Assembly: GCA_964555805.1 (NCBI GenBank)
Contig: CAZKTX010000002.1
Location: 1 to 52,392 of the forward strand
Reading direction: 5' to 3'
DNA from: an uncultured Rikenellaceae bacterium
GTDB taxonomy: Bacteria; Bacteroidota; Bacteroidia; Bacteroidales; VadinHA17
DNA: 52,392 nucleotides
Shown here: positions 33,381-46,002 of the stretch, one piece after another
Position numbering within the stretch: the first letter of the stretch is position 1
How the letters are laid out: every line of letters starts with the position of its first letter
Notes under the pieces: model-generated
What the model saw: only the letters and a program-made list of their open reading frames with translations
What the model was told of the DNA's origin: nothing
The model's database searches: none
Made by a program: the position numbers and the translations under genes

Positions 33381-34010
33381 ATGGGCAAAGTACAGGAGAA
33401 AAGTCCCCATGGGCTTGAGCTGCCACTGGTTGAAGAATTCTTTACAATTCAGGGCGAAGGATATCATTCAGGAGAGGCAGCATGGTTCATCAGGCTGGGT
33501 GGTTGTGATGTTGGCTGCAACTGGTGCGATTCTCGCTTTTCATGGGATCCGGACATGCACCCTCTGGTTCCGACTGAAAAGATTGTTGAACATGCACTGG
33601 GCTCAGGTTCCGGATCGGTGATTGTTACCGGCGGTGAACCTTTGATGTGGAATCTTGATCTTCTGTGCGATGGCCTTAAGAAAGGAGGCTTACGTACTTT
33701 TATTGAGACATCGGGGGCTTACAGCCTGAGTGGATTATGGGACTGGATATGTCTGTCACCAAAGCGAAACATGCCTCCGACTGAAGAAATCTGTCTCAAG
33801 GCAGATGAACTTAAAGTAATAATTGAAAGCAAAGATGATTTTGAGTGGGCTGAGAAATACAGGAACCTGGTCGGACCCCGGTGCAGACTCTACATCCAGC
33901 CTGAATGGAGCAGGTTCAGGACTGTCATTCCTGAAATCGTCAGCTATGTCAAGGAGAACCCCGACTGGAAAATATCCCTGCAGATACACAAATACATGCA
34001 TATTCCCTAG
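33381..34010 (+). CDS. queE: 7-carboxy-7-deazaguanine synthase (radical SAM)
   Basis: 209 aa. FTIQGEG...RLGGCDVGCNWCDS is the Cys cluster, and the size and layout match QueE. Confidence 0.85.
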   Translation: MGKVQEKSPHGLELPLVEEFFTIQGEGYHSGEAAWFIRLGGCDVGCNWCDSRFSWDPDMHPLVPTEKIVEHALGSGSGSVIVTGGEPLMWNLDLLCDGLKKGGLRTFIETSGAYSLSGLWDWICLSPKRNMPPTEEICLKADELKVIIESKDDFEWAEKYRNLVGPRCRLYIQPEWSRFRTVIPEIVSYVKENPDWKISLQIHKYMHIP

Positions 34011-36032: not shown

Positions 36033-36869
36033 TCAGATAGGACTCATAGTATTGGAAAATTCGTTAATTGAGTTATCGTGGTTTTCAACTGACGCGACCG
36101 GGATGGCAAAGTAGATGGAAGAACCTGTCCTTCCGTTGTTTTCGATCCAGATCGATCCGTCCATCATCCGTATCAGTTTTCGCACAAGGGCCAGGCTAAC
36201 GGCTGTATGTATGTCGTCGTACCTGGCAAGGGATTCTTTTAAATCAATGCTCTGTAGGAATTCCCTGCATTTAAGGTAACCCTGCCCCGAATCAGTAATG
36301 CAGAACCTGATTTTGCCTTCTGTAATGCTATAACTGACTTTAATATAACCTGATTCCGTGTTGCTCAGAGCTATCTGGAATAAATTGCGAATTACTCTTG
36401 TAACCCTGTTCGCATCAAATAGGCAGTCAGGGCTATTGCAGACCACATTTTCTGAAACAAGCAGAAGATGCTTGTACCTTTCCTTCTTTAGTATTTCCCT
36501 GAACTCTGAAAACAGATCCGCGAACATCTTACCAGTATGAACGACTCCAGGCTCCGAAATTGAATTGCCAGCATCAATTATGGCGGAATCCAGAAAATTG
36601 TCGAAAAGGGAAATAATCTGTTCGCACGAATTATATATATGATTGCCGAACTCCTCCCTCTCGGGTTCACAGTATTCCGATTTGTTCATCATGAAAGAGA
36701 AGGCAACTATTGCGTTCATCCGGGTCCTCATCTCCCGCGATAATTCTGTCAGTACCGCGGAGGAACCGGATACCGGTTCAATTAACTGGTCAACGCTTCC
36801 GGCCTGATCCCTTTTCCCCGGAACCTGGTCGCCGGAATCACCCTTTATATGTCCAAACAGGTCGAACAT
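36033..36869 (-). CDS. Soluble histidine-kinase-like protein (HisKA-like + HATPase_c) with a substituted phospho-acceptor site; probable pseudokinase
   Basis: 278 aa with no TM or sensor domain. The H-box position reads LSREMRTRMNAI where the canonical sequence is SHE(L/I)RTP(L/M)NAI, so His is replaced by Arg. The N-box (IRNLFQIALSNT) and G1 (ITDSGQG) are recognisable. The G2 glycines are missing (TAVSLALV). Confidence 0.7.
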   Translation of the reverse strand: MFDLFGHIKGDSGDQVPGKRDQAGSVDQLIEPVSGSSAVLTELSREMRTRMNAIVAFSFMMNKSEYCEPEREEFGNHIYNSCEQIISLFDNFLDSAIIDAGNSISEPGVVHTGKMFADLFSEFREILKKERYKHLLLVSENVVCNSPDCLFDANRVTRVIRNLFQIALSNTESGYIKVSYSITEGKIRFCITDSGQGYLKCREFLQSIDLKESLARYDDIHTAVSLALVRKLIRMMDGSIWIENNGRTGSSIYFAIPVASVENHDNSINEFSNTMSPI

Positions 36870-36896
36870 TTTATCCAGTAAAGGTTAAATCAACAA

Positions 36897-37646
36897 TTAT
36901 TTCAGGTATCTGAGAATTTTCTTTGCTTGCTTTCTGTAGATTGTCTTTGAATCTTCGATTGCAGCAAGCTGATCCAAGGCCTTTGCTTTTTCACCCGTCT
37001 TTATGTAGCACAGGGCCAGATACCATTGCGCATGATCAATATAGAAGTTGTTATTATCTTGTATTACTTTTGAAAAGGAGCCGCTTGCTTCAGGATAATT
37101 CTGGTTTTCGAAGTTCGAAATGCCGTTAAGCAGTTCGGTATGCATATCGCCCGGATTGTCTTCAAGTACCCTGGAGAAGTATATAGCTGCATTCCTGTAA
37201 TCCCTGACGTTGTAGTATTCCACTGCAAGACGGAAATTATCTGAATTTGAAGCCATGTTTGCAGAACGGGATACTGTAGCAACTTCATAGGGCTTGTAGT
37301 ATCGGCTTATAATCTCGTCGCTGTCAGGCCTGCCTCTTGAAAGCAATGCTATGCTTCCAATTATTACAAGGCTGGTTATTATTGCTGCGTACCTGATATT
37401 GACAGGCTTTTTGGGTTTTACTTCAGGCACTGGTTCCTGGCGCCGTTTCTCAATAGCGTTCAGTTTGTTGCGAAGATTCATAATATCCCGGTCCTTCAGA
37501 ATCATATCGGTCCGGTTACGCAGTTCAACCTCACGGCGAAGCTTCTCATTGCCTTCCAGTTCTTTCCTGAACCATTCCTTTTCAGCTTCATCCATTTCAC
37601 CGGCATTATACCGCTCGATAAAGTATGAAAAATCAATTGTTTTCAT
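36897..37646 (-). CDS. Single-pass membrane protein with anti-sigma-like N-terminus and periplasmic TPR domain
   Basis: 249 aa. The N-terminal FIERYNAGEMDEAEKEWFRKELEGNEKLRREVE resembles anti-sigma N-domains but lacks the Zn ligands. A TM helix follows (IRYAAIITSLVIIGSIALL), and the C-terminus carries TPR-like repeats (AVEYYNVRDYRNAAIYFSRVLE..., AQWYLALCYIKTGEKAKA). Confidence 0.6.
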   Translation of the reverse strand: MKTIDFSYFIERYNAGEMDEAEKEWFRKELEGNEKLRREVELRNRTDMILKDRDIMNLRNKLNAIEKRRQEPVPEVKPKKPVNIRYAAIITSLVIIGSIALLSRGRPDSDEIISRYYKPYEVATVSRSANMASNSDNFRLAVEYYNVRDYRNAAIYFSRVLEDNPGDMHTELLNGISNFENQNYPEASGSFSKVIQDNNNFYIDHAQWYLALCYIKTGEKAKALDQLAAIEDSKTIYRKQAKKILRYLK

Positions 37647-37953
37647 CTTGATATAATTTTGGTTTTAAGTTATTATGGAACAACACATGCTCAAAAACTA
37701 TATACATATGTGCAAGTACCTGATACATGTGGGTTTCATATCAATATTAAATTTGCAAATACATTCAATCATCATCAATTCGGACCGATACCACGTGCGG
37801 ACCTGCTGCACGAGCCATAGCATTCCGAATGCAATTCTACAGCCGGGAATAATATTCCGGAAGCCCGGCTGAAATGTCAGTCGCCAAAAAGAAAACTGGT
37901 GCCGTTTTAAAACACTGTTTTCGCTAAAGCAGTATCCGGCAGCTATTTTTTTA

Positions 37954-38088
37954 TCAGATCTTGACAGGAGGTAATGAAGGTTTCAGGATGGGGTCGGCAT
38001 CACCACCTTTTACACAAATCATTTCTTCAACTGTCAGAGCATACACATCAAGATTCGCATCAGAGTTTTTTACGTTCAGGGTTTTCAT
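37954..38088 (-). CDS. 44-aa precursor peptide with a double-glycine (bacteriocin-type) leader, GG-Bacteroidales natural-product-precursor-like
   Basis: My own translation of the minus strand gives MKTLNVKNSDANLDVYALTVEEMICVKGG|DADPILKPSLPPVKI*. The leader fits the L(S/T)xxEMxx(V/I)KGG pattern cleaved by C39 peptidase domains. A C39-ABC exporter is encoded 4 kb away. The leader upstream of the ATG is A-rich. The ORF is too short for the supplied track. Confidence 0.7.
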   Translation of the reverse strand: MKTLNVKNSDANLDVYALTVEEMICVKGGDADPILKPSLPPVKI

Positions 38089-38332
38089 AGTGCTGATTTT
38101 TTCATTAAATATTATTTCGGATAATTTGCATTTTCAAGCCAAATTCTATGTAACATGTCGGTATACCCCGTTTTGTGACACTGAAAAATGAACTATTTTT
38201 AAAATATTTTTTATATTCAAGATAATCAACTACATACAAAAAGGGAAAAAATGACAATCAGACCGTCATTATAACATTTTTTGTAAACTTGCGTTTTGGC
38301 ACGGGGAAGCGACTAATTAATCATCGACCTTG

Positions 38333-41300
38333 ATGTTTTCAGGCATCTTCATAAAGTCCTTATTGCTGTTCTTCATTTCTGCTGCCAGTTTTTGCCAGGA
38401 AAATGCAATCTCAGATTCCGGTAATGAACTGGCTGGACTGAATGAAGCCTTTCATGCAACAATTGCTGCCGGTGACACTGCCGGGTCGAGGGATCTGCTC
38501 TATTCAATTCTGAAGATTCTCAGGGAGGAACGGTTTGACAATATTACAGTTTCCAATTCTCAGTATTATATAGGGGTATATTATCTTCTTAACGGCAGGA
38601 ACAAGGAAGCTGTAAGCTGGCTGGGATCGTCCGTCTCGTTACGTGAGAAGATGAAGACTGTCGACGACGTGTATGCAAAAAGTCTGTTTAATCTGGCTCT
38701 GGCACACTCCAGGCGCGGAGATTTCAGGAAGATGGAAGAAAGCATCCTTCAATCTATTGATGCTGAGAAGACCCTGCATGGAGAAAATAGTCCCGAACTC
38801 CTGGATGGATATTCTGCATTGACGGGGGCCTGCATCAGCCTTAAGGATTACAGCCGAGCCATAGAATTCGGCAACATGGCGCTTGATCTGATCGGGGTGA
38901 ACAAGACTGAGCATATTAAGGAAATGGCGATCCTTAATGTGAATATCGGGATCAGCCATGCCTTTCTGTCCGACTATGCAAAGGCTGTAATGTTTCTTGA
39001 GAGGGCAGAATCGTTGTATCGGTCCAATCCCATTCCAAAGGATGAAAATTATATTAACCTGCTTAACAGTCTTGCGTCAAATTACCACTTCCTCGGACAG
39101 TCTGAAAAATCCGAAAGGTATTTCAACAAAGGCATCAGCATGATAAACTATGCGAATTCAGATCTGTCGCTTAATTTTCTGAACAGCTTTGCAATAAATA
39201 TGGGAAACGCAGGAGAAGCGTACAGGGGGGAGAAACTCCTGGCCGTCTCACTTGCAAAAGCCGGTAAGGTCTTCGGTCAAAGCTCAAGGGAGTACTGCGA
39301 GGTACTTAAGAACTACGCCGAATATCTCAGAAATTTCAAACTGGATATTGGCAGATCCATTGTATTATTCGAACAGTGCCTTGAATTAATTAAGGTCAAC
39401 AGTGAGGATTCTGCTTTGAAAGAATCGGTTCTGCTGGGGTATGCCCTTGCTCTTTCAGAAAAAGGGGAGAATGAAAAAGCTCTTGGAATCATTTCAGACT
39501 TACTTTTTTCAGGCAAAGATGGGACAGACTCAGGTTCAGGTCTTAAAAGCCCCGGACCGGGCCTGCTTGTGCCAGACCAATGGTCGTTAAAGCTGCTTCA
39601 GGCAAGATACAGAATACTCCATGGGATCTATGGAGAGAAGGCAGATATGAGCTACCTTCTGGCGGCAGCAGAAACGTCCGAACTGATTGTTTCCCTTATT
39701 GAGAAGGTGAGAATTAGTATAAGCGAGGAAGAAAGCAGGCTTGTTCTCGGAGACAGGTTCAGGGATTCCTATCTGCATGCTATCCGCGATCTTGACCTGT
39801 GCTACAGTAAAACCGGCGACATCAGTTATCTGAAAAAGGCTTTTGAGTATTCCGAGAAGTCAAAGGTTGCGGGCCTGCTGACTTCAACGAGGGAACTCAG
39901 GGCCACAGAGTTTCATATCCCCGAAGAAACAGCAGAACTTGAGCGCGGGCTGAAAATGGAAATAGGCTACTATGAAGCCAGAATAAGTGAAGAAGAAACA
40001 AAGAAGGAAAGTGATGACTCCCTTATAGAGGAATGGAAGGAACTTCTCCTGTCCGCAACTCAGAAAAGAGACTCTCTGATAGCTGTTTTCGAACAGATGT
40101 ATCCCGGTTATTATCTTATCAAATACAATACTGAGGTTATTTCGCCGGAACAAATTCCTTCTATTTCCGGCCGGAACACAAACTACCTTAACTATATAGT
40201 GTCCGACAGCCTTCTCCATATTTTTGTTGCAAACAGGAAGTATCTCCGGCTTGTTACTATAAACATCGATTCTTCCTTTTTCAACAATATCAGAGAGTTC
40301 CGGGCTCTTCTGTCGGAGCCTGACAATAATGCCAGGTCAGGGTTTGACAGATATCTTTCAACGGGCTACAGTCTCTACGCGACAGTCCTGGAGCCAGTGA
40401 AACAGTATCTGATTTCTAACAGGCTGCTGATCTCCCCCGATAACATTCTTTCGTATATACCATTCGAAGCTCTGCCAGTAAGCACTGAAGCCGGCAGCAA
40501 TGCAATGTTCAGCGAAATTCAGTATCTTCTGAAAGATTACAGCGTTTCATATACATATTCGGCAACTATGCTTGCTGAATCCGTCGGCAACGATCAGAGC
40601 TTCTCAAACTCTGCTGTTGCATTTGCTCCGAGCTATAATGGCAGGATTGATGTTGACTCACTTATGAAAGCCAGGCAATCAGGTGTTTCATCACTTTACG
40701 ACCTTAAATTTGCACGGGCTGAGGCTGAGTATGTTGCAGAACTGACCGGAGGCAGGCTTTATCTCGACAATAACGCAAGAGAATCGGTTTTTAAAACCGT
40801 GGCAGCGGAATATGATATAATACATCTTGCAATGCATACACTGCTAAACGACAAGGACCCGATGCATTCAAAGATGATTTTTTCGCAGGGTAACGATTCT
40901 CCGGAGGACGGCAACCTTAATACCTGGGAGGTTTATGGTATTCCGCTTAAGGCGAAAATGGTTATTCTAAGTTCCTGCAACACCGGAAGTGGTTCTTTGC
41001 ATTCAGGCGAGGGCATCCTGAGCCTTGCCAGGGGCTTCGTTTACTCCGGATCAAGGTCAGTTGTTATGTCAATGTGGGAAATAGAAGACAGATCGGGTGC
41101 CGAAATAGTAAATAAATACTACAGGAACATCAGGCATGGCGTATCAAAGAGCAATGCATTGCGAAAGGCAAGGATTGACTATCTGAGAAATTCCGACATG
41201 TTGAGATCTCACCCTTATTTCTGGTCATCGCTGGTTATTTATGGCAACAATACTCCGATTTATTATTCCTTATGGCTGAAGATTTCTGCAGGACTTCTTA

Positions 41301-41350
41301 TACTTCTTATTCCGGCAATACTGATCCTGATCTATAGTAAATCCAGATAA
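38333..41350 (+). CDS. Exported, C-terminally membrane-anchored TPR-CHAT protein (caspase-fold protease)
   Basis: About 1005 aa with a signal peptide MFSGIFIKSLLLFFISAASFC|QENA and approx. 600 aa of TPR-like repeats. The C-terminal CHAT domain has an intact His/Cys dyad (IIHLAMHT ... MVILSSCNTGSG). A terminal TM follows (ISAGLLILLIPAILILIYSKSR). The ATG at 38333 directly follows the track's TTG at 38330. Confidence 0.85.
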   Translation: MFSGIFIKSLLLFFISAASFCQENAISDSGNELAGLNEAFHATIAAGDTAGSRDLLYSILKILREERFDNITVSNSQYYIGVYYLLNGRNKEAVSWLGSSVSLREKMKTVDDVYAKSLFNLALAHSRRGDFRKMEESILQSIDAEKTLHGENSPELLDGYSALTGACISLKDYSRAIEFGNMALDLIGVNKTEHIKEMAILNVNIGISHAFLSDYAKAVMFLERAESLYRSNPIPKDENYINLLNSLASNYHFLGQSEKSERYFNKGISMINYANSDLSLNFLNSFAINMGNAGEAYRGEKLLAVSLAKAGKVFGQSSREYCEVLKNYAEYLRNFKLDIGRSIVLFEQCLELIKVNSEDSALKESVLLGYALALSEKGENEKALGIISDLLFSGKDGTDSGSGLKSPGPGLLVPDQWSLKLLQARYRILHGIYGEKADMSYLLAAAETSELIVSLIEKVRISISEEESRLVLGDRFRDSYLHAIRDLDLCYSKTGDISYLKKAFEYSEKSKVAGLLTSTRELRATEFHIPEETAELERGLKMEIGYYEARISEEETKKESDDSLIEEWKELLLSATQKRDSLIAVFEQMYPGYYLIKYNTEVISPEQIPSISGRNTNYLNYIVSDSLLHIFVANRKYLRLVTINIDSSFFNNIREFRALLSEPDNNARSGFDRYLSTGYSLYATVLEPVKQYLISNRLLISPDNILSYIPFEALPVSTEAGSNAMFSEIQYLLKDYSVSYTYSATMLAESVGNDQSFSNSAVAFAPSYNGRIDVDSLMKARQSGVSSLYDLKFARAEAEYVAELTGGRLYLDNNARESVFKTVAAEYDIIHLAMHTLLNDKDPMHSKMIFSQGNDSPEDGNLNTWEVYGIPLKAKMVILSSCNTGSGSLHSGEGILSLARGFVYSGSRSVVMSMWEIEDRSGAEIVNKYYRNIRHGVSKSNALRKARIDYLRNSDMLRSHPYFWSSLVIYGNNTPIYYSLWLKISAGLLILLIPAILILIYSKSR

Positions 41351-41892
41351 TCCTTGTATTCAGGGTCGGATTTAATAAGCTCCATAAGAGCTTCTTTACT
41401 CATATATTTTTTTCTCCTGGCATATGATTCACTCTTGAAATTCATTAAGGAGGCGATTTCCGGGTATGATAATCCTTCTGAAAACAGCGTCAGGATTTTC
41501 TGTGCATCATTGCTCAGCTTTCTGAAAGCCCGGCTAACTATAGTCTCAAGAACCAGATTCGGATCATCACCTTCTTCATTATCAGGGAAGTCACCGTCAA
41601 TACCAGTGTTTCTCATCTTCTTCCTCAGCTGTACCTTCCAGACATTCCTTGCAATACCGAAGAAATAACCTTTCAGATCGGTCGTGAGGCTGAAACCATC
41701 TGCTGTGACCTGACGATAAAGCGTTATGATGGATTCCTGGAAAACATCAGGGATATCTGATTCTGATCCGCTGTTTTTTAATACATGATACCTTACAGTC
41801 TCAAGATAATTATCATAGAGCCAGTTCAGTATCTGATCATCCTGTCGCCGGATTCCATCAATTATTGCACTATCTGAGATTTTTCGGAACAA
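41332..41892 (-). CDS. Sigma-70 family (ECF-like) RNA polymerase sigma factor
   Basis: The region 2 pattern is DVFQESIITLYR...GYFFGIARNVW and the region 4 HTH is LSYPEIASLMNFKSESYARRKKYMSKEAL. There is no in-frame ATG near the N-terminus, so the candidate starts are TTG at 41892 (MFRKISDSAIIDGIRR) or TTG at 41931 as in the track. Confidence 0.75.
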   Translation of the reverse strand: MFRKISDSAIIDGIRRQDDQILNWLYDNYLETVRYHVLKNSGSESDIPDVFQESIITLYRQVTADGFSLTTDLKGYFFGIARNVWKVQLRKKMRNTGIDGDFPDNEEGDDPNLVLETIVSRAFRKLSNDAQKILTLFSEGLSYPEIASLMNFKSESYARRKKYMSKEALMELIKSDPEYKDYLDLL

Positions 41893-41920
41893 TTGCTGAT
41901 TTTTCGCCTGGATAAATTGA

Positions 41921-41928
41921 CAAATATA
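41921..41928 (-). promoter_or_regulatory. Candidate -7 box (TATATTTG) for the sigma-factor gene
   Basis: The minus-strand sequence TATATTTG matches TAnnTTTG exactly and lies 28 nt upstream of the TTG at 41892. No TTTG -33 element occurs at the consensus spacing. If this box is real, the 41931 start would be non-coding. Confidence 0.35.
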
Positions 41929-42052
41929 CAATTTCCCGCGACCTGCAGTAGCGGACTGTCAGCGGGCAAACTCGCAAATTTACAATTTAAGGCATTTATG
42001 ATAAATAATAAATATATTTACTCCTCTCAAATAAACGCTCAGGCACCGAAAA

Positions 42053-44249: not shown

Positions 44250-45578
44250 ATGGAAGATCAAGAAAAGAATGAGATAGTATATTCAGAACCTGTCAGGGAT
44301 ATAATGGGAGCTGTGCCCGGAGGGATACTGAGATGGGGTACGGCAATTATTCTTGCTGTACTGGTTCTTTTTATTTTCTTCCTGTGGCTCGTGAAGTATC
44401 CCGACAGGGTTCCCGCACCAGTTGAAATAACTACAGTAAATCCGCCTGCCATACTTGTTTCAAAAATATCCGGAAGGATTAAGAATCTTTACGTGAATGA
44501 CAGGGATGAGGTTGCTGAGGATCAGCTCCTTGCAGTAATGGAAACTGCAGCTTCGATTGGAGAGATAAACCGTCTTAAATCAATTGTTGACACTGTAAGT
44601 GACCCGGGAGAGCTGCAGCTGAAATCACTCCCTGCTTTTACCGAACTGGGAGAACTGCAGAGTTACTGGAGTTCATTCCTCAAAAGCCTGTCTGATTACA
44701 ATAATTACAATGTCAACGACTTTTATGGGAATAAGATCCTTTCTCTTACTGATGAAATAAACGCTATCCTGGCTTATATCGGAAGGATCAGGGTTAAAGA
44801 GAATTTGTATTCAGAGAACCAGGTGATTGAGACAAGAAAGTTCAGAAGGGATTCGTTACTTTTTTCAGAAGGAGTCTACTCGGAAAGTGAGCTCGAGAAA
44901 TCACGGCAGGCTCTTATCCTGCTTAATATCGAACTTCAGCAGGTTCGGCTCGATCATTCCCAGAAATCAATAGAACTGGCTGAAAAAAGGCAATTGCTTC
45001 AGGACTACAGGATAAAGCGAATAGAGGATCATGAGAAGTACTATTCTGTTCTTAGTGAATCTTTTATGAATCTCAGGGCTCAGTTAAGGATATGGGAAAA
45101 TACATATTTGCTTATATCCCCTGTGTCGGGGACAGTAACGCTTACAAGGTTCTGGAGCGAAAATCAGACGGTTGAAAGGGATGAGCCTGTTTTGAGCGTT
45201 ATTCCCAGGGAAACCGGCGACTATATCGGCAGGATCAGCCTCAAAATGAACCGTTCCGGAAAGGTCAAACCAGGTCAGGATGTCCATATCAAATTAAGCG
45301 GGTATCCTTATCTGGAGTATGGGATGGTAAGGGGAGTTGTAAAATCCAGGTCGCTGGTTCCTTCTGCCGATTCATATATAATAGAGATATCCCTGCCTCA
45401 GGGCCTGACAACCCTGTATGGCAGGGATCTTGATTTTTCGCAAAACATGCAGGGTACCGCGGAAATTATAACTGAGGACCTTCGTTTGCTTGAGAAAATT
45501 CTTAATCCTGTCAGGCATCTTGTTTCCCGGAACCGGAGCCGGGATATTTCCCTGAATAAGGCTCATAGTCATCCCTGA
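44250..45578 (+). CDS. HlyD-family secretion adaptor protein
   Basis: 442 aa with an N-terminal TM (WGTAIILAVLVLFIFFLWLV), a lipoyl-like segment, a long coiled coil and a C-terminal beta-barrel. It starts 10 nt after the ABC gene. Confidence 0.85.
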   Translation: MEDQEKNEIVYSEPVRDIMGAVPGGILRWGTAIILAVLVLFIFFLWLVKYPDRVPAPVEITTVNPPAILVSKISGRIKNLYVNDRDEVAEDQLLAVMETAASIGEINRLKSIVDTVSDPGELQLKSLPAFTELGELQSYWSSFLKSLSDYNNYNVNDFYGNKILSLTDEINAILAYIGRIRVKENLYSENQVIETRKFRRDSLLFSEGVYSESELEKSRQALILLNIELQQVRLDHSQKSIELAEKRQLLQDYRIKRIEDHEKYYSVLSESFMNLRAQLRIWENTYLLISPVSGTVTLTRFWSENQTVERDEPVLSVIPRETGDYIGRISLKMNRSGKVKPGQDVHIKLSGYPYLEYGMVRGVVKSRSLVPSADSYIIEISLPQGLTTLYGRDLDFSQNMQGTAEIITEDLRLLEKILNPVRHLVSRNRSRDISLNKAHSHP

Positions 45579-45714
45579 CCGAATGCAACGAGCCGCTAGC
45601 AGCCGGTTTCTGAACAGACTGCTTCTCTTTTCCTTTTTTGTAATACTTTCGGTAGAGGCTTATACCAACTGCTGCAATAACCACAATTGCAAAGAATGCA
45701 TCATTGCTTTTCAT
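45511..45714 (-). CDS. Hypothetical 67-aa single-TM protein (weak call)
   Basis: MKSNDAFFAIVVIAAVGISLYRKYYKKGKEK... has one clear TM followed by a basic patch. It overlaps the 3' end of the HlyD gene convergently by 68 nt, and I recognise no family. Confidence 0.3.
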   Translation of the reverse strand: MKSNDAFFAIVVIAAVGISLYRKYYKKGKEKQSVQKPAASGSLHSVRDDYEPYSGKYPGSGSGKQDA

Positions 45715-46002
45715 CTTTTCCTGATTTGAAAATTCCGGATAATCCGATTTTACAATTACTGAATTCAAATATATCAATTTTTTAAGCAGACAATAATCAT
45801 GTTTTAAACATACTGCAAACACTTCCGCTAACCCTTAATATTTCATCAATTACTGCATTTGAGCTTTATCAGCGTCTATTTCTTATTTTTCCATAATAGT
45901 TTGAGTTTTAATAAATAATTCAATATTTTCGTAGTCTGAAAAAATCATGGGTCACCATGGTATGGAGTATTATTGAAGATATTGAACCTTAAAGGATTGG
46001 AT

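Follow-up and report, generated by a model that had tools for sequence, protein, structure and literature searches.

The window analysed here is a 52,392-nucleotide stretch from an uncultured Rikenellaceae bacterium of the Bacteroidales (contig CAZKTX010000002.1). Its minus strand carries a gene for a 44-residue precursor peptide with a double-glycine (GG) leader and a short proline-rich core. The gene lies among genes for a membrane TPR protein (here TPR249), a soluble kinase-like protein, a TPR-CHAT protein, a sigma factor of the extracytoplasmic function (ECF) type, a peptidase-C39 ABC exporter (PCAT) and an HlyD-type adaptor (Table 1). An initial annotation had picked out the peptide, whereas its context, i.e., the operon with the TPR and kinase-like genes, the TPR-CHAT protein, the sigma factor, and the element and hairpin flanking the gene, went unnoticed. 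Judged from its conservation and codon evolution, the peptide is a genuine gene of an undescribed family of GG-leader peptides, and a signalling role together with the TPR, CHAT and ECF sigma factor proteins is the best-supported reading of what it may do.

The peptide gene and its family

The minus-strand translation, MKTLNVKNSDANLDVYALTVEEMICVKGGDADPILKPSLPPVKI, splits at the GG into the leader MKTLNVKNSDANLDVYALTVEEMICVKGG and the core DADPILKPSLPPVKI. The open reading frame (ORF) is present exactly as the initial annotation had placed it, with 44 residues and a GG leader, and both homologues and codon evolution back it as a gene. The translation also agrees with the core proposed there: the 15 residues past the GG include four prolines, two aspartates, two lysines, one serine and no cysteine, with a net charge of about zero. 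Within the leader, L18, E22, M23, V26, G28, and G29 occupy the consensus positions of GG leaders (hydrophobic at -12, Glu at -8, hydrophobic at -7 and -4, GG at -2 and -1); E22, M23, G28, and G29 never vary, and L18 does not vary within the close family. The leader had been described as typical of the Bacteroidota GG type, which holds for these canonical positions but less so for its likeness to the precursor model TIGR04149, an accession that had been given correctly. Hits to this model are weak, being found in five of 21 relatives at E≥0.0013, below threshold, and the proposed check of the window peptide against it gave no match at E≤10; nor did the peptide match anything else in NCBIfam at this cutoff. 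PF14406 matched neither the window peptide nor the 21 relatives, and the Pfam search assigned no family to the window peptide, ComC included.

A six-frame regular-expression search for small ORFs with a canonical GG leader returned a single match in the 52-kb window, compared with a mean of 0.05 in 200 shuffled windows, 4.5 % of which give one match. Taken alone, this count is suggestive of a real gene. What establishes the ORF decisively, beyond the regular-expression statistic, is its conservation across homologues. A single-sequence search retrieved 39 full-length homologues of 44-45 aa, a profile search extended the family to 267 clusters at 90 % identity, and an exhaustive hidden Markov model scan of 1.84 billion cluster representatives yielded 76 clusters at the 50 % level, with lengths of 41-50 aa in nearly all of them. 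The gene occurs in 24 GTDB species genomes, with one copy found in each, all of them metagenome-assembled genomes (MAGs) of uncultured Bacteroidales. Family members follow a common blueprint, MKTLNxE...F.EF.L[ST].EEMxx[VI][KR]GG, followed by a Pro-rich core of 12-21 residues that usually reads (D/E)-x-(x)-(D/E)-P-Φ-x-x-P-x-x-P-P-Φ-(K/R)-Φ-stop. Core length, proline positions and the C-terminal end, PP-Φ-(K/R)-Φ, are retained down to about 40 % identity. A divergent core subtype found in three metagenome loci (L082, L104, and L108) ends in ...NPT(K/R)PPVIIE(I/L/F), not in PPVKI. Our literature search found no description of this peptide family.

The pattern of substitutions is that of a protein-coding gene. 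The window and its relative L001 differ by 11 synonymous and two non-synonymous codon changes, and in the close group 16 of the 24 variable sites fall on codon position 3. The ratio of non-synonymous to synonymous polymorphism (pN/pS) is 0.20 in the peptide frame; of the other frames, the best antisense one gives 0.38 and the remaining four give 1.0-2.7. Purifying selection acts in the peptide frame only, the signature that the initial annotation had proposed to look for across orthologous loci. Resolved by part, the ratio of substitution rates (dN/dS) is 0.05 in the C-terminal and 0.53 in the N-terminal part of the leader; the core has 0.16. The core is as constrained as the leader, and together with its retained length, prolines and C-terminal end this makes a pattern which fits a ligand read by a conserved partner, not a diversifying toxin.

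Contrary to the expectation that standard ORF callers would miss the peptide, most relatives carry it as a called ORF, labelled 'hypothetical protein' by the JGI and NCBI pipelines. In a near-identical strain (L036, 4857-5159), the frame is called as a 100-aa ORF with a TTG start, which spans the promoter element and ends in the complete, unchanged 44-aa peptide; this over-extension arises because a small upstream change removes an in-frame stop. Among the MFD long-read MAGs, the listed gene calls of L002 are split into several short pieces, and the peptide ORF of L022, L023, L028, and L029 is truncated or frameshifted. These odd calls look like assembly indel errors rather than true pseudogenes.

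Genes surrounding the peptide gene

Judged by gene order in relatives, the peptide, TPR249, kinase-like, TPR-CHAT, sigma factor, PCAT and HlyD-type genes form a seven-gene module of fixed arrangement. Every locus with sufficient sequence, about 50 altogether, shows this arrangement; 20 of these loci were new and had been located by the promoter element alone. TPR249 lies directly downstream of the peptide gene in each of them, even where the TPR homologues share 38 % identity, and the CHAT, sigma factor and PCAT genes are present wherever contigs reach. Homologous small ORFs near C39 exporters, which the initial annotation had suggested looking for in relatives, are likewise found wherever contigs reach. 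Identities of the neighbours drop to 34-38 % with the arrangement kept; in L082, L104, and L108, the TPR, kinase-like and CHAT neighbours are 28-44 % identical and stand in the same order. Only 1 nt separates the peptide stop from the TPR start in L034, and L066 lacks the kinase-like gene. Because of these two variants, the minimal conserved pair consists of the peptide and the membrane TPR protein. A search for rearranged contexts, which could part function from synteny, found none: all look-ups, the most divergent peptides included, returned the same block, and relatives at ≥60 % identity saturated the list of TPR249 homologues. By its setting the locus is chromosomal and vertically inherited, with no sign of mobility.

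The PCAT gene lies 4 kb from the peptide gene and is co-conserved with it. Its product has the Cys, His and Asp motifs of the catalytic centre (QYDAMDCGPACL, HFVVVY, and IADPA) and is similar over its full length to ComA (8hf4, E 5e-103) and PCAT1 (4ry2, E 1.5e-101). The HlyD-type adaptor is co-conserved with the PCAT. Export of the peptide by this transporter is thus well supported by gene content and motifs, in line with the earlier view of the leader as a C39-type substrate: an intact C39-ABC exporter lies 4 kb away and is conserved along with it. PADLOC recognized no defence-system model and gave only generic ATPase-domain matches on the ABC transporter.

The TPR-CHAT protein is predicted to be periplasmic because hydropathy indicates an N-terminal signal peptide and a C-terminal transmembrane anchor. 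The dyad motifs, HLAMHT with the His and LSSCNTG with the Cys, are unchanged in 23 of 23 loci, and we predict a periplasmic caspase-like protease; against PDB sequences, the protein shows similarity only to the TPRs of kinesin light chain. The CHAT and sigma factor genes are convergent and their 3' ends overlap by 19 nt. A conserved housekeeping-type box, TAtaTTTG, lies inside the listed sigma factor ORF downstream of its TTG start (41893-41931 region), and relatives have the gene called at 186-188 aa. The true start is probably a downstream ATG near 41892, giving about 186 aa.

TPR249 has a cytoplasmic N-terminal segment of about 80 aa with three helices, a transmembrane helix at residues 82-105 and an outward-facing TPR domain of about 145 aa. 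The cytoplasmic segment is its most conserved part and is nearly invariant. An AF2 model (pLDDT 68) shows the three-helix unit, the transmembrane helix and a small TPR domain, and Foldseek against the PDB returned generic TPR matches only (E≥0.025), weakly resembling periplasmic or peptide-binding TPRs. The topology and the conserved three-helix unit are compatible with the layout of a single-pass anti-sigma factor, albeit with no match to any anti-sigma domain. We regard TPR249 as a candidate receptor and/or anti-sigma factor. We also noted that its cytoplasmic juxtamembrane residues 71-84 (37395-37436, minus strand), EPVPEVKPKKPVNI in the window and EPIPVRKPTRTVNI in relatives, resemble the peptide core (DPILKPSLPPVKI / EPILKPSTPPIKI); this could be a chance likeness between Pro-rich linkers.

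The H-box of the kinase-like protein reads SREMRT in the window, with Arg in place of the phospho-acceptor His. Arg occupies this position in 19 of 22 loci, and His is found in L018, L019, and L027 and also in the distant L034. The G2 box appears degenerate by eye.

Two further genes in the vicinity were considered. A radical-SAM gene at 33381-34010 (plus strand), 4 kb from the peptide gene, was rejected as a maturase, since it encodes QueE, the 7-carboxy-7-deazaguanine synthase (TIGR04322, E 3.4e-32). Between the HlyD-type gene and a DUF349 gene, a gene for a single-pass transmembrane protein (45511-45822, minus strand) is conserved in relatives with listed gene calls. The protein is likely to comprise about 57-67 aa (MKSNDAFFAIVVIAAVGISLYRKYYKKG...); gene calls in most relatives give 55-59 aa. 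Because of its orientation, the gene is unlikely to be co-transcribed with the exporter.

Table 1. Positions of the peptide gene, its flanking elements and the neighbouring genes in the window
Feature	Position	Strand	Basis or remark
Precursor peptide gene, 44 codons and stop	37954..38088	-	Translation, family alignments, codon evolution
Leader, codons 1-29	38002-38088	-	
Predicted mature core, DADPILKPSLPPVKI	37957-38001	-	
Stop codon of the peptide gene	37954-37956	-	
Probable 5' untranslated leader	38089..38153	-	Upstream-region alignment
Conserved block in the 5' leader, CAAATTATCCGAAATAATATTTAATGA	about 38102-38128	-	Family consensus GAATTACCCGAAATA..AGTATCAATGA
Bipartite element, TGTCACAAA-N12-GACATG	38154..38180	-	66-92 nt upstream of the peptide ATG
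Stem-loop, TACTGCTTT-AGCG-AAAACAGTG	37913..37934	-	20 nt past the peptide stop
TPR249, single-pass membrane TPR protein	36897..37646	-	Pfam TPR matches, hydropathy, conservation, AF2 model
HisKA+HATPase_c (kinase-like) protein, 278 aa, soluble	36033..36869	-	Pfam; no transmembrane segment by hydropathy
TPR-CHAT protein, 1006 aa, divergent from the peptide gene	38330..41350	+	Pfam CHAT PF12770 (E 1.6e-54) and TPR_12
ECF-type sigma factor	41332..41931	-	Sigma70_r2/r4_2 and TIGR02937; listed ORF has a TTG start
Peptidase-C39 ABC exporter (PCAT), 728 aa	42053..44239	+	Peptidase_C39 (E 3.4e-37), ABC_membrane, ABC_tran
HlyD-type periplasmic adaptor, 442 aa, one N-terminal transmembrane helix	44250..45578	+	TIGR01843 (E 2.8e-19, below cutoff)

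Elements flanking the peptide gene

Upstream of the peptide gene, all 29 of the 29 related loci carry a single bipartite element, its spacing fixed and its spacer sequence drifting. Neither these 20-kb loci nor the window contain a further copy, and by chance none is expected in the window. The six divergent loci L030-L035 all have TGTCACAAA-N12-GACA, with the full GACATG in all except L034 (GACAC). We regard the element as a candidate promoter for an alternative sigma factor or a candidate LytTR-type operator. Its 5' box, TGTCACA, is identical to the documented -35 box of ECF41 (PMC3426412). The sigma factor of the module has no ECF41 C-terminal extension. LytTR operators share a 9-N12-9 geometry; genes for LytTR or small HTH proteins were found neither in the window nor in related loci. 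The factor acting on the element could be the local ECF sigma factor or a LytTR-type regulator encoded elsewhere.

Scanning metagenomes for the element yielded 80 loci, 20 of them with a member of the peptide family 37-68 nt downstream. Among the remaining 60, many are chance matches, as expected for a pattern with 15 specified bases. A subset shares the flanks of the family: GACATGTA is found in 14 of the 60, compared with roughly 6 % expected (a rough estimate), and this form of the element reads TGTCACAAA-N12-GACATGTA with A/T-rich flanks. In this subset, the element precedes gene families that recur. In four loci (L039, L044, L098, and L103), these encode a small HTH-like protein and, behind it, a membrane protein of 220 aa and a thioredoxin-like protein; three others (L051, L070, and L048) have a secreted Peptidase_S74-containing protein beside YD/Rhs-like genes, and another three (L049, L064, and L041; Pfam E 1e-15 to 1e-20) have stand-alone LytTR DNA-binding proteins, one of which adjoins a LanC-like gene. 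Its placement before LytTR regulators, secreted proteins and the LanC-like cluster in Bacteroidota-like contigs hints at a wider, undescribed class of promoters or operators.

The stem-loop downstream of the peptide gene was detected by comparative alignment only. Five of its nine predicted pairs show compensatory double changes across 16 loci, and a simple terminator scan found no canonical T-tailed terminator at this position. The hairpin is likely to act as a partial terminator or to stabilize the transcript. In the spacer between the peptide gene and TPR249, just upstream of the TPR249 start, the window and L009 have an extra segment of about 95 nt (about 37647-37745, minus strand) that is missing from the other close relatives. 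An inverted repeat of about 13 nt, GAAACCCACATGT...ACATGTGGGTTCC, flanks the segment in L009, where it resembles a small palindromic insertion element.

Possible function and known systems

We propose that the product is exported as a probably unmodified, linear 15-residue peptide and acts as a self-made signal feeding an extracytoplasmic circuit of TPR, CHAT and ECF sigma factor proteins, a proposal to which we give about equal chances of being right or wrong. The GG-leader precursor, the neighbouring C39-ABC transporter with its intact triad and the HlyD-type adaptor can be read from the sequence. Following the established PCAT mechanism, the C39 domain would cut after Gly29 and the transporter would move DADPILKPSLPPVKI to the periplasm or to the outside. 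There, the peptide would serve as a self-produced signal and not as a toxin, its Pro-rich body and free C-terminus (PP-Φ-K/R-Φ-COOH) being bound outside the cytoplasm by the TPR domain of the co-transcribed TPR249 and/or of the divergent, predicted periplasmic TPR-CHAT protease. TPR carboxylate-clamp or PDZ-like sensors typically read C-termini. By analogy with DegS/RseA/sigma-E, DdvA/DdvS, and Csx29/Csx30, binding may lead to CHAT-dependent proteolysis of TPR249 as the anti-sigma factor and so free the adjacent ECF sigma factor. The peptide gene would be driven by its own bipartite element and the hairpin would insulate the genes downstream, making it a high-output unit capable of feedback. 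The sensing mechanism in this scheme is what we infer. All plausible partners, i.e., the exporter, two extracytoplasmic TPR proteins, the caspase-like protease and the ECF sigma factor, lie within 10 kb. The pheromone-like product suggested by the initial annotation fits every observation made here and is demonstrated by none of them.

Several observations weigh against this proposal. No anti-sigma fold was found for TPR249 by Foldseek against the PDB with the AF2 model, a profile of its N-terminus gave only spurious NMD3 matches among PDB sequences, and a Pfam search at E≤10 returned nothing relevant and no anti-sigma domain. Comparison of the TPR-CHAT protein with PDB sequences found no similarity to DdvA or Csx29. 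The module contains no classical membrane histidine-kinase receptor or response regulator, and in most lineages the phospho-acceptor His is gone from the kinase-like protein. At the element, the conserved 3' block lies 13-14 nt away, compared with 16 +/- 1 in the ECF41 geometry (PMC3426412), and unrelated genes elsewhere, including those for stand-alone LytTR regulators, also stand behind it; for these two reasons, something other than the local sigma factor may act on it. The sigma factor and PCAT genes have housekeeping-type Bacteroidota boxes upstream and lack the element of the peptide gene, so that a simple sigma-autoregulated loop is not evident. Furthermore, synteny in the clade extends over all of the 20-kb block, from NamZ to DUF349, which sits among housekeeping genes, and synteny alone therefore cannot prove a functional linkage, as phylogenetic inertia is inseparable from it. 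A mirror-tree comparison of the peptide core and leader with partner domains, controlled for background genes and limited to 11 usable loci, gave partial correlations of 0.56 for the C39 domain of the PCAT and 0.51 for the CHAT domain; an OmpA/PD40 neighbour scored as high as these module partners (0.57). Finally, every carrier of the peptide is an uncultured MAG.

Among the other explanations, the one closest to our proposal is that the peptide acts within the cell that makes it, remaining in the periplasm, where it would be a substrate or pseudo-substrate of the TPR-CHAT protein or modulate it allosterically, and providing private feedback or a signal of envelope status. We consider it unlikely. 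The CHAT protease is predicted to be periplasmic, has an intact dyad and is always divergent from the peptide gene, the peptide has an invariant PP-Φ-(K/R)-Φ end, and CHAT proteases are sequence-specific regulators, as exemplified by HetF/PatU3 (PMC9457339) and Csx29/Csx30 (PMC10028731); periplasmic rather than outside export has also been proposed for HetC (PMC10986499). On the other hand, an HlyD-type adaptor is present, which in diderms usually means export across both membranes. Computationally, this explanation is indistinguishable from the signalling model, with which it has the first three steps in common, up to recognition of the peptide outside the cytoplasm. A narrow-spectrum, unmodified bacteriocin or microcin-like toxin, exported by the PCAT and HlyD proteins and with the membrane TPR protein as immunity or regulatory factor, appears improbable. 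A GG leader, a PCAT and an HlyD adaptor make up the standard export set of class II bacteriocins and microcins (PMC12219008, PMC10233263), and elsewhere the shared element fronts loci with a flavour of competition (secreted proteins beside YD/Rhs-like genes; the LanC-like cluster). However, the mature part has only 15 residues and a charge of about zero, its four prolines preclude an amphipathic helix, and selection on the core is purifying, not diversifying. Each species genome has a single copy found, the locus is vertically inherited among housekeeping genes with no sign of mobility, and neither the window nor the gene lists of relatives contain an adjacent gene for a small multi-pass immunity protein. 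The peptide is short, neutral and Pro-rich and thus differs, as the initial annotation had pointed out, from class II bacteriocins, which are typically longer than 30 aa, cationic/amphipathic or Gly-rich and accompanied by an immunity gene.

That the gene encodes the precursor of a peptide that is ribosomally synthesized and modified post-translationally (RiPP), with a maturase located elsewhere or unrecognized, seems very improbable to us. The leader is distantly like TIGR04149, a family of radical-SAM-modified RiPPs (five of 21 relatives match, best E 0.0013), and long conserved leaders are typical recognition elements of RiPPs. Yet the module has no radical-SAM/SPASM, LanM/LanC, YcaO, ATP-grasp or other recognizable peptide-modifying enzyme, the TPR-CHAT protein apart, in about 50 loci, and QueE accounts for the radical-SAM gene at 4 kb distance. 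The core lacks Cys, has just one Ser and offers no conserved pair for cross-linking. This bears out the earlier remark that the peptide is unlike radical-SAM or lanthipeptide substrates. A further reading, in which the ORF is untranslated and the conserved feature is an RNA or regulatory DNA, or in which the antisense 76-aa ORF is the real gene, is effectively refuted. In its favour, many small ORFs turn out to be spurious, and this one has conserved non-coding elements on its flanks. Against this stand the bias to codon position 3 and the low pN/pS, both seen in the peptide frame only, and the ORF length and both ends, kept across the 267 clusters; the antisense ORF (37961-38191, plus strand) exists in the window, as had been noted, but stop codons interrupt it in many relatives, and an Rfam scan of 36800-38400 gave no match.

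C39-ABC-exported GG peptides are classic Gram-positive pheromones. Like the peptides of the ComC/CSP-ComAB-ComDE, BlpC and plantaricin A systems, the product described here would be short and unmodified (about 15-25 aa in those systems) and cut by a C39-ABC transporter (PMC7595303); its PCAT aligns over the full length with ComA, and the peptide gene lies beside signalling genes. In contrast, the host is a diderm member of the Bacteroidales with an HlyD adaptor, and there is no membrane HPK10-type kinase, LytTR response regulator or ComC Pfam match as in the ComC/CSP systems. Their place is taken by a membrane TPR protein, a soluble and mostly His-less kinase-like protein, a TPR-CHAT protein and an ECF sigma factor. 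The precursors of TIGR04149/PF14406 share with our peptide the Bacteroidota host, the GG-type leader and export by PCAT and HlyD proteins (PMC4573289, PMC8939145), but the window peptide fails the TIGR04149 model and its core is Cys-free, Pro-rich and conserved. The partner pair of radical-SAM families TIGR04148/TIGR04150 is absent from the module in all loci, and by these marks the peptide is not a TIGR04149/radical-SAM precursor. Other diderm PCATs, those of the cyanobacterial EbfG1-4/PteB and HetC systems, also export small proteins with roles in development or biofilm formation and not in killing (PMC4997328, PMC10986499); they differ in their cargo families and lack a TPR/CHAT/ECF sigma factor module, and the substrate of HetC is unknown. 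Signalling by the cargo of diderm PCATs has been suspected since in-silico screens twenty years ago, with evidence still lacking (PMC10986499).

Our literature search found neither a paper linking CHAT proteins with GG peptides nor a description of this kind of peptide communication for Bacteroidota. The locus might represent the first peptide-based cell-cell signalling of this phylum, in which a PCAT-exported 15-mer is read at its C-terminus by extracytoplasmic TPRs, a TPR-CHAT protease cleaves a TPR-type anti-sigma factor and an ECF sigma factor is set free, a receptor logic that would be new; in this full form we consider the claim doubtful. TPR domains of the RNPP receptors (Rap, NprR, PlcR, PrgX, and Rgg) bind short linear peptides from the C-terminal end of a secreted precursor. 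These receptors are cytoplasmic, belong to Firmicutes and need re-import of the peptide (PMC7595303), whereas the TPR domains considered here are predicted to be extracytoplasmic.

The closest parallels for the downstream part of the circuit are proteases coupled to sigma factors. DdvA is a periplasmic TPR-CHAT protein fused to an anti-sigma factor, and signal-induced cleavage followed by release of the sigma factor has been proposed for DdvA/DdvS (PMC11506125). As in that system, the TPR-CHAT protein of the module is predicted to be periplasmic, has an intact His-Cys dyad and is genetically coupled to an ECF sigma factor (PMC11506125). It differs in being a separate, C-terminally anchored protein with no detectable sequence similarity to DdvA, and the candidate anti-sigma factor is a small TPR protein without a zinc-binding motif; moreover, DdvA has no known signal and no associated peptide gene. 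In Craspase (Cas7-11/Csx29), the TPR-CHAT protein Csx29 cleaves the anti-sigma-like Csx30 and thereby controls the ECF sigma factor CASP-sigma (PMC10028731). Coupling of TPR-CHAT to an ECF sigma factor is common to both, but Craspase is cytoplasmic, RNA-guided and CRISPR-associated, whereas the module described here is free of CRISPR and predicted to be periplasmic, with a secreted peptide as candidate trigger. In the DegS-RseA-sigma-E pathway, the site-1 protease, located in the periplasm, is activated by a free peptide C-terminus and cleaves a single-pass anti-sigma factor; DegS is a PDZ serine protease that senses the C-termini of misfolded outer-membrane proteins. Here the likeness is one of analogy only, as the candidate sensor is a TPR/CHAT protein and the ligand the product of a dedicated, exported gene. 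If our proposal is true, the locus represents a version of the DegS/RseA or DdvA pathway with a self-produced ligand and supplies the known trigger that TPR-CHAT/ECF sigma factor systems of the DdvA type lack; as a candidate ligand, the short, linear and apparently unmodified peptide is clearly defined and therefore simple to synthesize.

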